Below are positions 2,421 through 25,984 of a DNA stretch of 64,000 nucleotides, piece by piece. This stretch comes from Escherichia phage EC148. Position 1 is the stretch's first letter, and every line of letters begins with the position of its first letter. A program made the translations under genes and the position numbers. Under the pieces are notes generated by a model, which searched no databases, was not told the origin of the DNA, and saw only the letters and a program-made list of their open reading frames with translations. The stretch is taken from sequence record NC_106721.1; one strand, 5' to 3'.

Positions 2421-2497
2421 TGGCAAACCTACTAGGACTCGAACCTAGACCGTACGGTTTTGGAGACCGACATGCTGTCCAGTAACACTCTAGGAAT
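2421..2497 (-). tRNA. tRNA-Trp (anticodon CCA)
   Basis: T-arm CTAGG-TTCGAGT-CCTAG, anticodon arm CGGT-CTCCAAA-ACCG closely resembling E. coli tRNA-Trp (from memory); acceptor stem has two U-U mismatches; CCA encoded. Confidence 0.5.
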
Positions 2498-2505
2498 GCA
2501 GGAAT

Positions 2506-2582
2506 TGGCGTCCTGTGCGGGGATCGAACCCACAAATCCTACCTTGAAAGGGTAGTGACTTTACCAGTTTGTCTAACAGGAC
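2506..2582 (-). tRNA. tRNA-Glu (anticodon UUC)
   Basis: Perfect acceptor GTCCTGT/ACAGGAC, T-loop TTCGATC, anticodon stem CTACC/GGTAG with loop CTTTCAA, CCA encoded. Confidence 0.7.
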
Positions 2583-2808: not shown

Positions 2809-3084
2809 TTAGTCGAACTTAGGAGCGACAGTTAAGGAGAATGGAAGTTCGAAAACTTCTTCGCCCTCATCACTAACAGTAATTACACGACCTTTAAGTT
2901 CAGACATTGAAATATCAATATCAGCTTTTGCATCTGGAGCCATGCCAGCTTCAATACATTTAGCTTTAACTTCCGGCAGAAGTTCTACATCGTAGAAATA
3001 AAGCCATTCAATCTCACCTTCCCAGCCTTCTCAGGATTTACAGATTGCACTTTCAATACCAGTTGCTATAACACGATTTTGCAT
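2809..3084 (-). CDS. hypothetical protein interrupted by an in-frame TGA at codon 18 (readthrough candidate or disrupted gene)
   Basis: ATG at plus 3084-3082 with GAAGGAG Shine-Dalgarno 7 nt upstream; frame reads MQNRVIATGIESAICKS-TGA-EGWEGEIEWLYFYDVELL... to TAA at plus 2811-2809. Confidence 0.35.
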
Positions 3085-3174
3085 TCGTTAACTCCTTCAT
3101 CAATTTATATAACTATTATACCAGAAATTTAAAGCAAAAGGCAAGTACATTTTTAAAAATTCTGTTTGGAGGAG

Positions 3175-4138: not shown

Positions 4139-4216
4139 TGGTGGCTCCCCGAGGATTCGAACCTACGTACCTTCCGGTTATGAGCCGGGTGCTCATACCA
4201 TATGAGCTTGAGAACC
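4139..4216 (-). tRNA. tRNA, anticodon CAU (Met/Ile2-type)
   Basis: Acceptor with two G-U pairs, D-stem GCTC/GAGC, anticodon stem CCGG/CCGG with loop CTCATAA, weak 3-bp T-stem around TTCGAAT, CCA encoded. Confidence 0.5.
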
Positions 4217-21691: not shown

Positions 21692-21720
21692 TTGACATCC
21701 ACCCTCGAATGAGTTATAAT
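21692..21720 (+). promoter_or_regulatory. consensus sigma70 promoter upstream of nrdD
   Basis: -35 TTGACA (21692-21697), 17-nt spacer, -10 TATAAT (21715-21720). Confidence 0.7.
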
Positions 21721-21749
21721 AGTAGTCTTAGTTAGAGAAGGAGAGTATA

Positions 21750-23624
21750 ATGAATCGCAATGAAGAACTAAAGTATAAAGAAATGCAGGCGTTAATTAGA
21801 AACTGCAAAGAGATTATCGAAGGGTCAGCAGATGAAGAGCTGCTGTTTAATAATGCCAATAAACCCTCAGAACGTTTCCCTACACAGAGGGATATGCTTG
21901 CAGGTGAATTGAGTAAGTATCTGATTCTAGAAGAAATGCCAATTCAGATTCGAAATGCTCATATGATTGGGGATATTCATTTCCATGATGCTGATTATGC
22001 TGCATTAGGCATGACTAATTGTTGTCTGGTAGCTCTGGAAGATATGTTGAAGAATGGTATGAAGGTTGGTAATGCTGAAATTAGCACTCCAAACTCTATC
22101 ACTACTGCGGCAGCTATTACAGCTCAGATTATCACACAGGTTAGCTCCCATCAGTATGGTGGTACTTCCGTGGATCGCCTTGATGAAGTATTAGCTCCTT
22201 ATGTTCGTAAATCCTATGACAAAAATCATGCGTTTGCAAAACGTTGGACTAAAGATGAGGCCAAAGCATCAGTAATGGCTACGGAGATGACTGAAAAAGA
22301 AGTTTATGATGCCTGTCAGGGTCTAGAATATGAAATCAATACCATGTTCAACTCTAATGGTCAGAGTCCATTTATTACCTTTGGTTTTGGTCTAGGAACT
22401 TCTTGGGAAGCACGTCTAGTACAGAAAGCAATACTGAAAGTACGCATGGATGGCTTAGGTATCAATAAACGTACAGCTATCTTCCCGAAACTGGTATTTG
22501 TACTTCGTGATGGCGTTAACATGAAACCAGGAGATGTTAATTATGACATCAAGAAGTTAGCTATGAAATGTACTGCTGAACGTATGTATCCAGATTATAT
22601 CAGCTATGATAAGGTTGTGGAAGTTACTGGTGACTATAAAGTTTCTATGGGCTGCCGTTCATTCCTAGCTGCTACAGAAGATGGTGAAACTGCCGGTCGT
22701 AATAACTTAGGTGTTGTTTCTGTAAACTTGCCTAGAATTGCTATCGAAGCTGAAGGAAATATTGATCTATTCTTTGATTTGCTTGAGCTACGTGTGGATA
22801 CAGCATTAAAAGCGTTGGAGTGGAGAGTTGATCGCTTAAAATACATTCAAGCTAAAGCTGCACCCATCCTCTATATGTCAGGAGCCTTTGGACTGCGCTT
22901 GGAGCCTGATGAATACGTATTCGATCATTTCTATAACCGTGCTTCTGTATCTCTAGGATATATTGGTTGTCATGAAATGCTACAGTTCATGTTTGGCAAA
23001 GATGTAGACACAATGTCCGAGACCAGCATCAAGTTTGTTCAGCGTGTATTGCAGTACATGCGAGATAGAGTCGATCAGAAGAAGGAAGAAACTAAGTTAG
23101 GTTATAGCCTGTATGCTACACCGTCAGAGTCCCTGTGTGATAGGTTTTGCCGTTTAGATCGTGAATATTTCCCGGAGCATGAAGATATTCTGTCCAAAGG
23201 ATACTACACTAACTCTCACCACCTTGATGTGGAACGTAAAGTTGCTCCCAATGTGAAATTTGATTATGAATCTAACTTTACTCCGATTGCTTCTGGTGGG
23301 TGTATTTCCTATGTAGAACTACCGGATATGAAACGATTCCCAGATGCACTAGAATGGGTTATTAATTATGCTGCTAGTAAAGTTCATTACTTCGGTATTA
23401 ATACTCCAGTGGATTCTTGTGGTAAATGTGGATTCTTAGGTGAAACAATAGCATCCGAAGATGGATTTAAGTGCCCTATCTGTGGTAATCATGACCCCGA
23501 AACTCTTGAAGTAACTCGTCGAGTTTGTGGGTATCTTGGAAATCCAGGTGCTCGTCCATTTAACCCAGGCAAACAGCATGAGGTTATGGGCAGGGTGAAA
23601 CATCAGGATATTCGAGCTAAGTAA
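21750..23624 (+). CDS. nrdD: anaerobic ribonucleoside-triphosphate reductase (class III)
   Basis: C-terminal glycyl-radical motif RVCGYLG and CxxC...CxxC zinc ribbon; promoter TTGACA-17-TATAAT at 21692-21720. Confidence 0.85.
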   Translation: MNRNEELKYKEMQALIRNCKEIIEGSADEELLFNNANKPSERFPTQRDMLAGELSKYLILEEMPIQIRNAHMIGDIHFHDADYAALGMTNCCLVALEDMLKNGMKVGNAEISTPNSITTAAAITAQIITQVSSHQYGGTSVDRLDEVLAPYVRKSYDKNHAFAKRWTKDEAKASVMATEMTEKEVYDACQGLEYEINTMFNSNGQSPFITFGFGLGTSWEARLVQKAILKVRMDGLGINKRTAIFPKLVFVLRDGVNMKPGDVNYDIKKLAMKCTAERMYPDYISYDKVVEVTGDYKVSMGCRSFLAATEDGETAGRNNLGVVSVNLPRIAIEAEGNIDLFFDLLELRVDTALKALEWRVDRLKYIQAKAAPILYMSGAFGLRLEPDEYVFDHFYNRASVSLGYIGCHEMLQFMFGKDVDTMSETSIKFVQRVLQYMRDRVDQKKEETKLGYSLYATPSESLCDRFCRLDREYFPEHEDILSKGYYTNSHHLDVERKVAPNVKFDYESNFTPIASGGCISYVELPDMKRFPDALEWVINYAASKVHYFGINTPVDSCGKCGFLGETIASEDGFKCPICGNHDPETLEVTRRVCGYLGNPGARPFNPGKQHEVMGRVKHQDIRAK

Positions 23625-23666
23625 GCTAATCAGCCGGGTTGCTAGTCGACCTGGCTTTTATTTTAT

Positions 23667-23695
23667 TTGCTTTCAGCCAAAAATTTATATATAAT
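23667..23695 (+). promoter_or_regulatory. sigma70-type promoter (plus)
   Basis: -35 TTGCTT / 17 nt / -10 TATAAT, followed by conserved AT-rich leader ending in GAGAGGAG RBS. Confidence 0.6.
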
Positions 23696-23723
23696 AGATT
23701 TATAAATTTGAGAGGAGAAAGAT

Positions 23724-24104
23724 ATGGAATTAAAGCCCTATATAGTTGAATCTACATGTGGTAGTTTCCATCTGGGTGTAGATGATATTGCTGAGGCTGT
23801 CTTTGCTGCCACAGGTGATTACTCGCATATAGAGGGTGTTGGATACCCTACCATTATTGGCGATTGGGTGGGAACAAATCTAGATGTATCGCCTTATAAC
23901 CCATATTGCTTGTTTGATGAAGACAGAGATGAAGTAAAATGTAATCTTGAATTTGTGTATAATAGAGTGTTAAAAGTATACCAACGTAGCCCCAATGGGT
24001 ACGAAGATATTACTTGGAGTATTAAACAGTATCTTAAAGATGTATACTCTAGTTTTTCTGACGAAGACCTAGAAACAGTTGCAGTGGAGTTTAATAATGA
24101 CTAA
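23724..24104 (+). CDS. hypothetical protein, 126 aa
   Basis: RBS GAGAGGAG; lacks the CxxxCxxC radical-SAM motif expected for an NrdG activase. Confidence 0.5.
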   Translation: MELKPYIVESTCGSFHLGVDDIAEAVFAATGDYSHIEGVGYPTIIGDWVGTNLDVSPYNPYCLFDEDRDEVKCNLEFVYNRVLKVYQRSPNGYEDITWSIKQYLKDVYSSFSDEDLETVAVEFNND

Positions 24105-24303
24105 GAATGTGAAACACCTTAAATATCGCTTAATTTACAACGGACGTATGGAAACAGAAGATCTGGCCCAATTAGCTATTAACTCTAATGAGGTTACAGT
24201 GCGTGCACTGGCAATTGAAAAGTTGCGTGCCTCTTATGAAAATCGTGTTATGGAACTAGAGGAGAAACTTTATGGCATTCTCGAAGCCGATACTACCAGA
24301 TAA
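24097..24303 (+). CDS. hypothetical protein
   Basis: ORF, start set at MTKNV. Confidence 0.4.
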   Translation: MTKNVKHLKYRLIYNGRMETEDLAQLAINSNEVTVRALAIEKLRASYENRVMELEEKLYGILEADTTR

Positions 24304-24493
24304 GGGTTTAAACTCCGCTTTGGAAAATGCATTAATGCAGCAGTGGGAAACTGGCTATAAGGATGGTGTTGAATCCTGCGCTACTATGCTAGAAGTTATT
24401 GCTAATACCTTAATGGAGAAAGGCAATAAAGAATTAGCTGAGCTATTAGACAGTATTGGGCAAAACTTCAGAGAACAGGTGAAAAATGCGTAG
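24272..24493 (+). CDS. hypothetical protein
   Basis: ORF. Confidence 0.4.
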   Translation: MAFSKPILPDKGLNSALENALMQQWETGYKDGVESCATMLEVIANTLMEKGNKELAELLDSIGQNFREQVKNA

Positions 24494-25322
24494 ATTAATT
24501 ATTATTAGTGGTGCGGGTTTGAGTGTTGAAAGTGGTGTACGAGCCTTCCGTACTGATACTGCTAGTGGTAAAGCATTGTGGGATGACTATGATCTAGAAG
24601 AAGTATGTAATATTCATGCCTTTCGTGGTAATTTTTATCATAAAACCCATATGTTTTACAACAAGCGTCGTGAAGAGCTAAAAACTGTTGAACCCAATCT
24701 TGCGCATTTGCGTATTGGTGAATGGTATAAACAATATCCAGGTCAAGTAGTAAACTTGACTACCAACGTTGATGACCTTATTGAGCGTGCTGGCGTTCCA
24801 CATAGTGACATTCTGCATATTCACGGATATTTAAAAGAGGTTGTTGTAGCTGATAGCTACAATAGTAGCAATAAACGGATTATTGATGTAGGATACAATT
24901 CTATTGATCCAGATGATTATAAATGGGTTAAACCTAATGTAATCTTCTTTGGAGAGCATGCTCCTGCATACGCAGAAATGTATAATGTTTTTGACGGTAT
25001 TACCAGTCAAGATATGATCATTGTGGTTGGTTGCTCTAACCAAGTAATTAACTTCTACTGGGAATTATTTCCTGTTCTTAATAGGACTGCTGCGAAATTT
25101 ATGGTAGTTAACTACTATGATAGTGCCCTCGCGGCGGAACCGGGCTATCAAGGTATGACTCGTAGTGAGATGTACCAGCTGGAAGAACGTGGTGTCCCTT
25201 ACTGGAGTAAAGGTGCGGTAGATGCTTTTAGTGATCCTGATTTTATTGCTCGTGTAGAAGCTCATTTAGAGGGTAGACCTTATGTGTCGAGAAGCAAGGG
25301 AAACAGATATGTCCATAGTTAA
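24486..25322 (+). CDS. Sir2-family (sirtuin-like) NAD-binding protein without zinc ribbon
   Basis: GAGLSVESGVRAFR, NVDDLIERAG...HIHG and VIFFGE motifs; no Cys in the usual Zn-binding insert. Confidence 0.7.
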   Translation: MRRLIIISGAGLSVESGVRAFRTDTASGKALWDDYDLEEVCNIHAFRGNFYHKTHMFYNKRREELKTVEPNLAHLRIGEWYKQYPGQVVNLTTNVDDLIERAGVPHSDILHIHGYLKEVVVADSYNSSNKRIIDVGYNSIDPDDYKWVKPNVIFFGEHAPAYAEMYNVFDGITSQDMIIVVGCSNQVINFYWELFPVLNRTAAKFMVVNYYDSALAAEPGYQGMTRSEMYQLEERGVPYWSKGAVDAFSDPDFIARVEAHLEGRPYVSRSKGNRYVHS

Positions 25323-25491
25323 ATCTGTGTATACACACCCCGATGATATATTTGTATGGGCGGATGGTAGTTGGTGCTATCGCTGTGAGCTGTGGGAGAT
25401 GGACTATAAATCCGATGACTATGGTGTTATATATGTTGATACGGTTGAGTATGATACGTTCTTAGAAAGGAACAAAAATGGAAATAAGTAA
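25309..25491 (+). CDS. hypothetical protein
   Basis: ORF, start set at MSIVKS. Confidence 0.4.
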   Translation: MSIVKSVYTHPDDIFVWADGSWCYRCELWEMDYKSDDYGVIYVDTVEYDTFLERNKNGNK

Positions 25492-25984
25492 TACTCCAAT
25501 TATTTTTCTAGATATTGATGGGGTGCTCAATTCGAGCATCTCCCACCATCATGCACCTGATGACGAAAAGATTTTCTTTGGAAGTGATTGGGTTTTCAAA
25601 CCGCTTCTCAAGGCTTTTCAGGACTTTATTCGTCCTTCTCCGATAATGATTGTTGGAGTATCCTCATGGTTCTCTGTCAGGAATGAGATGGAGAACGTTC
25701 AGATTATGACCGGATTAGGTCTTATCGATCGTTTTCTTGGTACAACGGATTTTACTGGGGGTGGATTATCTAGGGGTAATTCTGTTCTTCGCTTCGTTGA
25801 AAAGCATAAGCTCAAACATTGGTGTGTTCTGGATGACGCTGGTGCTATGATGTACCAGTATCCAACGGTTATAGTCAACGGTAGAACTGGAATAAATCTT
25901 CAAGATTTAATGGCTGTTAGCTATATGCTAGAATTTAGTCCAGATCTTGAAATGTGTAAAGCCCTACAACAATTTAAGGTGTAA
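25478..25984 (+). CDS. HAD-like hydrolase (putative phosphatase)
   Basis: Motif I-like IIFLDIDGVLN. Confidence 0.5.
   Translation: MEISNTPIIFLDIDGVLNSSISHHHAPDDEKIFFGSDWVFKPLLKAFQDFIRPSPIMIVGVSSWFSVRNEMENVQIMTGLGLIDRFLGTTDFTGGGLSRGNSVLRFVEKHKLKHWCVLDDAGAMMYQYPTVIVNGRTGINLQDLMAVSYMLEFSPDLEMCKALQQFKV

Follow-up and report, generated by a model that had tools for sequence, protein, structure and literature searches.

An in-frame TGA in the T5.072 homologue of Escherichia phage EC148 is very probably a recent, lineage-private nonsense mutation

Introduction

In phage Q-beta, programmed UGA readthrough extends the coat protein to the A1 protein by insertion of Trp; there the stop is conserved, and the phage cannot do without the extended product. 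The crAss-like and Lak phages carry in-frame stops in many genes, together with suppressor tRNAs that have the matching anticodons. A further class comprises the classic leaky nonsense mutations, the opal alleles at Trp codons of E. coli and its phages, in which UGA is a stop that is misread by tRNA-Trp(CCA), so that the leak restores Trp (PMC11903333). In E. coli with attenuated release factor 2 (RF2), mass spectrometry revealed Trp as about 80% of the residues at UGA, and this Trp came from tRNA-Trp(CCA), an insertion dependent on the loop motif A36-A37-A38 (Grome et al. 2025, PMC11903333). The structure of the tRNA matters as well. When E. coli tRNA-Trp(CCA) with 27-43 unpaired was overexpressed, UGA readthrough in vivo rose about 2.5-fold, and G24A (the Hirsh mutation) and A9C likewise promote UGA reading (Fakih et al. 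2026, PMC13092985).

Escherichia phage EC148 (ON185585.1) is a Tequintavirus from bird faeces, isolated with ECOR4 as host and taken through three or more rounds of plaque purification; Illumina MiSeq reads gave 187x coverage of its genome, the assembly was made with CLC, and the genome announcement names T5_ev212 as its closest relative (PMC9583813). We analysed a stretch of 64,000 nt from this T5-like phage (hereafter the window), to which all coordinates refer unless another locus is named. A first-pass annotation of the window had drawn attention to a minus-strand open reading frame (ORF) with an in-frame TGA beside the phage tRNA island. It was headlined as a readthrough candidate, with a recent nonsense mutation and a sequencing error as the other options.

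Low-frequency reading of this phage UGA by tRNA-Trp would give a longer product, as in Q-beta. Unlike in Q-beta, the stop is missing from every relative, and the ‘extension’ is the ancestral gene body. The in-frame stop lies close to phage tRNA genes, as in crAss-like and Lak phages, but in contrast to these EC148 has one such stop and no suppressor anticodon. The locus is like the opal alleles of E. coli and its phages in that a single TGG-to-TGA change faces intact orthologues and a leak would be expected to restore Trp. The EC148 allele differs from laboratory opal mutants in being natural and from an environmental isolate; otherwise nothing sets it apart.

Results

The interrupted gene retains its expression signals. 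The locus comprises the following features.

2809..3084, minus strand: disrupted orthologue of T5.072 / AKFV33 orf071 (PHROG 4551), identified by translation, annotation and profile match
3115..3144, minus strand: sigma-70-type promoter, TTGCCT / 18-nt spacer / TATAAT, 10/12 matches
3092..3098, minus strand: Shine-Dalgarno sequence GAAGGAG, 7 nt 5' of the ATG, invariant in a four-way alignment
3084-3082, minus strand: start codon ATG, read from the sequence
3034..3084, minus strand: the 17 codons ahead of the TGA, still translated from the native start, MQNRVIATGIESAICKS (by translation)
3031..3033, minus strand: premature opal codon TGA in the context AAA TCC TGA GAA, read from the sequence
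2809..2943, minus strand: residual 44-aa ORF from Met48, called by gene callers in place of the full gene

Translation of the window gives an ancestral frame of 91 codons plus TAA that is broken at codon 18. The annotated ORF start at 3084 with its GAAGGAG site is present in the sequence, and the TGA at 3033-3031 is followed in frame by 73 sense codons and then by TAA at 2811-2809, which bears out the continuation that had been reported. The promoter-like element noted upstream is well matched to the sigma-70 consensus and lies at 3144-3115, the same place as a promoter annotated in phage AKFV33. Promoter and Shine-Dalgarno sequence are the same as in the relatives aligned, except for two scattered single-base differences in AKFV33. 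With promoter, Shine-Dalgarno sequence and start codon intact, transcription and the start of translation should therefore persist. The description of the segment downstream of the TGA as Trp-rich was overstated, as Trp makes up two of its 73 residues and three of the 91 in the intact protein.

GenBank entry URF91807.1 of EC148 is exactly the 44-aa residual ORF (2943..2809). The frame contains no ATG, GTG or TTG from the TGA up to Met48, and no obvious Shine-Dalgarno sequence stands ahead of Met48. With these signals missing from the stretch before Met48, a restart product from that codon is not proposed.

Just 3' of the stop of the gene, a perfect 14-bp hairpin lies at 2762-2800 on the minus strand (-22.8 kcal/mol, z = -6.0). 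Lacking a U-tract, it does not count as a canonical terminator. In AKFV33 a promoter is annotated for the tRNA-Tyr/Glu/Trp/Phe cluster, and its -35 element overlaps with the 3' arm of this hairpin.

The frame belongs to a conserved protein family. An uninterrupted 276-nt CDS is annotated at the corresponding coordinates in T5_ev212, in AKFV33 (orf071, ‘similar to T5.072’) and in Salmonella phage 8sent1748. With Trp18 restored, the 91-aa product aligns with all 90 positions (1-90) of the profile of PHROG 4551, a family of unknown function (E = 1.2e-44), and its identity to 32 full-length cluster representatives is 70-95%. The gene lies at a conserved position between the T5.073/074 homologues, which are upstream, and the tRNA-Tyr/Glu/Trp/Phe cluster downstream, and the gene order is the same in T5_ev212, AKFV33, 8sent1748 and the IMG/VR loci. 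Over 30 distinct alleles the T5.072 family has a dN/dS of 0.185, with 0.18 upstream and 0.19 downstream of Met48. The low value on both sides of Met48 indicates that selection acts in the family on all 91 codons as one protein-coding gene. Judged by these comparisons, the interrupted frame is no ORF by chance but a genuine gene, with purifying selection acting on it across Demerecviridae. Searches of Pfam and NCBIfam with the protein gave no hit, and a profile search of the PDB returned nothing below E = 0.3. The AlphaFold2 model was too poor for use (mean pLDDT 56, residues 1-32 below 50).

Natural deletions affect the gene in two T5-like phages from IMG/VR. In one of them (L031, a 109,306-bp contig) the frame is lost after about residue 57, and in the other (L032) residues 76-91 alone remain. 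These deletions, together with a private stop of its own in Citrobacter phage Cit2 (see below), show that the gene is dispensable. This small gene of the early region is thus conserved yet dispensable, the effect of its loss being read from natural deletions only.

The TGA allele is derived and private to EC148. The region of the locus is 99.9% identical to T5_ev212 and to a handful of other Tequintavirus genomes, and the TGA is the sole difference from T5_ev212 in 801 bases. It arises from the Trp18 codon TGG by a G-to-A transition on the coding strand, corresponding to C-to-T on the plus strand at 3031, and in an alignment with three relatives TGG to TGA is the only change at codon 18. The locus was found in more than 400 phage records. 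All 33 further DNA loci, drawn from GenBank phages, IMG/VR and metagenomes, read TGG at codon 18, and each of the 34 protein clusters has Trp18, with identities as low as 70%. We also used a 61-nt probe centred on the changed base, for which only an exact match scores at least 99%; none of the 159 phage records that matched the probe was exact. An exact 38-nt search for the TGA allele gave no match in IMG/VR, GTDB genomes or metagenome contigs. A scan of GTDB genomes for relatives of the locus found none, and a metagenome scan found seven, all intact, with search patterns that contained Trp18 or Trp27 and hence a slight bias toward intact copies. We dropped tblastn coverage of at least 80%, seen in 527 of 530 records, as proof of intactness, since tblastn aligns through stops, as it does in Cit2.

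The TGG in all other loci, the Trp18 in all clusters and the lack of exact matches in these searches indicate that the allele is derived and private to EC148. As far as the compared sequences go, it is a private stop in one lineage at a site where the orthologues have a sense codon. This agrees with the option of a recent nonsense mutation (33/33 loci TGG, 34/34 clusters Trp, 0/159 records TGA). It also goes against the readthrough headline, for which orthologues with a sense codon and no TGA had been named beforehand as the refuting observation: all orthologues compared have the sense codon, and none has the TGA. A programmed readthrough site was rejected as a candidate, because its stop would be conserved and all relatives examined have TGG.

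Codon 18 also lies within a direct repeat (TGGGAAGGC/TGGGAAGGT). At this repeat, Salmonella phage vB_Si_CECAV_FGS009 (L008, 378-662) carries an in-frame 9-nt duplication that results in WEGWEGWEG instead of WEGWEG. Five Salmonella phage records (H41-H45) match the 61-nt probe in two pieces with a span of 70 nt, which fits an insertion like that of FGS009, the only one of these that was translated.

A sequencing or assembly error, in which the true codon would be TGG and the gene intact, is very unlikely. It would suit an allele that is known from the material of one phage isolate alone and a change that sits in the middle of a GGG run (TCC TGG GAA). The GenBank (CLC) and Logan assemblies, moreover, presumably share one sequencing library, the link of SRR21280016 to the EC148 project being itself presumed. 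Over 5,943 bases, the TGA included, the window and the Logan contig of run SRR21280016 agree at 100% identity; the window may derive from this contig, in which case the identity is not independent and the corroboration is the 44-aa call in GenBank. An error is hard to reconcile with 187x coverage by paired-end Illumina MiSeq reads (PMC9583813), with a gene that is truncated in both assemblies and called in agreement in both, and with a change that is a substitution and no homopolymer-length error. The genome is otherwise clean, its 74 CDSs being free of frameshifts and of any other nonsense change, and its remaining differences from T5_ev212 are ordinary. It is formally conceivable that wild type makes up a minority of the phage stock, or that the error is systematic; this option of the annotation is improbable all the same.

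TGA is a normal stop codon in the EC148 genome. We compared the whole window with T5_ev212 (99.8% and 99.9% identity over two stretches; 74 annotated CDSs). The only internal stop was that in the T5.072 homologue, and none of the 74 CDSs was frameshifted. In the first 65 CDSs the codon changes amounted to 49 synonymous, 17 nonsynonymous and one nonsense, most of them in one mosaic patch. The CDSs terminate at TAA (56), TGA (13) and TAG (5), and those that end at TGA include the genes for DNA polymerase, DnaB helicase, the RNR beta subunit, RNase H and flap endonuclease. Trp is encoded by 165 TGG codons in 65 CDSs. The Logan locus reaches 7 kb past the start of the window and covers the rest of the tRNA island, and across this island ARAGORN found 21 tRNAs, none with a UCA anticodon.

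Reassignment of TGA to Trp across the genome, on the model of genetic code 4 or of recoded phages, would draw its sole support from the single in-frame TGA at a Trp position beside the tRNA island. One CDS in 74 with such a codon, TGA as the terminator of 13 CDSs with essential replication genes among them, no UCA anticodon among the 21 tRNAs from ARAGORN and the use of the 165 TGG codons for Trp make its probability negligible. With one internal stop, TGA used as terminator and no UCA anticodon found, both genome-wide reassignment and recoding by a suppressor tRNA can be regarded as excluded.

The comparison gave some further observations. Of the 79 substitutions that separate the window from T5_ev212, about 60 are concentrated at about 21700-25500, around nrdD and four small downstream genes; 31 of the 32 changed codons of nrdD are synonymous, and this segment is a mosaic patch, due to recombination, within a genome that is near-identical elsewhere. 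The only indels in the first 49.5 kb are deletions of 1 bp and 15 bp at window positions 12812 and 15275, both outside annotated CDSs. A single-base difference at 2532 lies in the T-stem of tRNA-Glu (2506-2582, minus strand), where, on visual inspection, a U*G wobble replaces a C-G pair; as with the TGA, the change is a G:C-to-A:T transition. Rfam detected two tRNAs that ARAGORN had missed, at 4142-4216 and 8424-8495 on the minus strand (40.3 and 35.5 bits; seen in L006). The T5_ev212 annotation gives the former as tRNA-Met and the latter without an assigned type.

The phage tRNA-Trp combines an ordinary anticodon with unusual stems. The tRNA that had been connected with the TGA is the following feature.

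2421..2497, minus strand: tRNA-Trp, anticodon CCA, found by ARAGORN and Rfam alignment

The imperfect acceptor stem described for it is real: the Rfam alignment shows the mismatches U2*U71 and U3*U70, and furthermore G8. The D-stem contains a U11-A24 pair, a U27*U43 mismatch leaves an anticodon stem of 4 bp, and the 7-nt loop reads CUCCAAA, retaining the A36-A37-A38 motif. The Rfam score is low (36.3 bits). Compared with the E. coli tRNA-Trp, whose reference sequence we verified against 5,426 genomes, the anticodon arm differs solely at 27-43 (C-G to U*U), and the D-stem has A24 instead of G24.

By its anticodon this tRNA is no UGA suppressor. Its sequence does not differ between EC148 and T5_ev212, and it is base-for-base identical in 10 of the 12 relatives in which ARAGORN finds it, all of which have TGG at codon 18. 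The imperfect acceptor stem is thus a trait of the lineage and unrelated to the TGA. The proposed link between tRNA and TGA does not hold in the form suggested, given the CCA anticodon, the same tRNA in 10 of 12 TGG relatives and the TGA that ends 13 of 74 genes.

In T5 (L019, 1237-1322) and in several relatives (L009, L010, L017, L036 and L037), another tRNA-like sequence takes the place between tRNA-Glu and tRNA-Phe. It has a CUCCAAA loop and the acceptor GGGGTA.../...TACCCCTGCCA, and ARAGORN makes no call for it. The sequence appears to be a second tRNA-Trp allele of the family, of non-canonical form.

The phage tRNA-Trp shares several features with the Hirsh G24A and 4-bp-stem tRNA-Trp variants (Kachale et al. 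2023; PMC13092985), namely the CCA anticodon, the CUCCAAA loop, A24 (here paired with U11) and the unpaired 27-43. Its anticodon stem is of the 4-bp type, with 27-43 unpaired, a 7-nt loop and a CCA anticodon. Unlike those variants, it also has G8 and the two acceptor U*U mismatches. It co-exists with normal termination at TGA and is unchanged in relatives without an in-frame TGA. The strict ‘Blastocrithidia-like’ subclass, defined in PMC13092985 as lacking A9C and G24A, was considered and rejected, as A24 excludes the phage tRNA by definition. The bacterial survey of 4-bp-stem tRNA-Trp makes no mention of phages (PMC13092985), and we found no literature report of raised UGA decoding by T5-family tRNAs.

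With two features that have been reported to raise UGA reading, this tRNA-Trp could increase the UGA leak above the basal level. A stronger proposal is that the phage tRNA-Trp(CCA) misreads UGA intrinsically and keeps the interrupted gene functional, so that changes from Trp to opal would be nearly neutral in such phages. The 4-bp anticodon stem with its 7-nt loop and the U11-A24 pair are in favour of this, as are the restriction of the anticodon-arm change relative to E. coli to 27-43 and the A24 for G24. Unpairing of 27-43 gives about 2.5-fold more UGA readthrough and G24A is a known UGA-misreading change (PMC13092985), and the retained A36-A37-A38 has been tied to UGA suppression (PMC11903333). 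The published effect is modest, however, at about 2.5-fold over a low background and with overexpression (PMC13092985), and the two acceptor mismatches and G8 cast doubt on efficient processing or charging. Besides, many relatives with intact genes have the same tRNA allele, so there is no association between the two. Genes terminate at TGA in 13 of 74 cases, and the extensions behind these stops are not shortened by backup stops. Such backup stops had been considered as a signature of habitual readthrough and gave no signal, the median being 11 codons after TGA versus 6.5 after TAA.

A second opal mutation bears on this proposal. Citrobacter phage vB_CfrD-Cit2 (OP745948.1) carries TGA in place of TGG at the invariant Trp27 (L007, 538-540; context GAG TGA CTC), with Trp18 intact, and GenBank annotates only the 44-aa remnant WAB24859.1. 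This allele is private, too, since among 57 records the exact match is Cit2 alone; NBSal003, with a C-terminal half identical to that of Cit2, has Trp27 intact. The tRNA-Trp of Cit2 is the EC148 allele apart from one difference in the acceptor stem. Independent TGG-to-TGA changes in the same gene, together with the same tRNA-Trp allele, would fit facilitated readthrough, as would the fact that both stops are TGA and neither is TAG. Both also stand in TGA-G or TGA-C contexts, compared to TGA-T at nine of the 13 genuine TGA stops. On the other hand, each allele is private to a single isolate, and hence neither has persisted in evolution. Enumeration of the single-base nonsense paths for codons 2-47 gave seven transitions and 17 transversions, from which the probability that two of two nonsense events are TGG-to-TGA by chance is 0.02-0.11, depending on the transition bias within a plausible range. 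The pattern is suggestive, not significant. Taken together, we consider it quite unlikely that the phage tRNA keeps the gene functional. The related idea that the T5-like tRNA-Trp(CCA) is naturally relaxed toward UGA through the unpaired 27-43 and A24, that part of the UGA codons would then be read as Trp in infected cells, and that the W18 mutation of EC148 and the W27 mutation of Cit2 would be only mildly deleterious, is still unlikely, if a little easier to accept.

The protein collection contained six distinct 44-aa fragments of the T5.072 family that start at Met48, those of EC148 and Cit2 among them. The other four (P0039, P0040, P0041 and P0043) stem from Logan and ENA assemblies and imply what are probably further N-terminal disruptions in other T5-like phages. 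These four had been clustered with an unrelated 378-aa acyl-CoA dehydrogenase (P0036) as their representative, apparently an artefact of the clustering.

Discussion

The in-frame TGA of EC148 is, with high probability, a recent and lineage-private TGG-to-TGA nonsense mutation in a conserved, dispensable gene rather than a case of programmed readthrough or recoding. One G-to-A transition in the EC148 lineage changed the invariant Trp18 codon to TGA after the split from the 99.8%-identical T5_ev212. RF2 would be expected to stop most translation after 17 residues and the 17-residue peptide to be the main product, which would make the allele null or strongly hypomorphic. A nonsense allele of this type is an already known, ordinary sort of event.

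Few ribosomes would be expected to pass the UGA in E. coli, mainly by means of near-cognate tRNA-Trp(CCA). Since Trp is the ancestral residue at codon 18, such a leak would rebuild the exact wild-type protein. The annotation had named Trp as the residue to be inserted if the UGA is read; this is indeed what would be expected (PMC11903333). The allele may thus be a leaky hypomorph rather than a strict null. The W27 event in Cit2 hints that opal alleles at Trp codons may be better tolerated than a plain null, in which case the term ‘null allele’ would be too strong. The mutation itself, its restriction to this lineage, the constraint on the family, the lack of recoding signatures and the intact expression signals are shown here; the efficiency of termination, the size of the leak and the lack of a fitness cost are inferred.

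As it stands, a strain-specific nonsense polymorphism in a nonessential phage gene is of little weight. It is of use for annotation, as GenBank gives the 44-aa URF91807.1 alone and the locus is better read as a disrupted T5.072 homologue. It also calls for caution, because a single in-frame TGA next to a tRNA island is no evidence of recoding. If the 4-bp stem and A24 did increase the decoding of UGA, the T5 family would offer a natural and tractable system for near-cognate UGA reading in E. coli, with EC148 and Cit2 as ready-made in vivo reporters, and the same tRNA might tune the readthrough of some phage or host TGA terminators.
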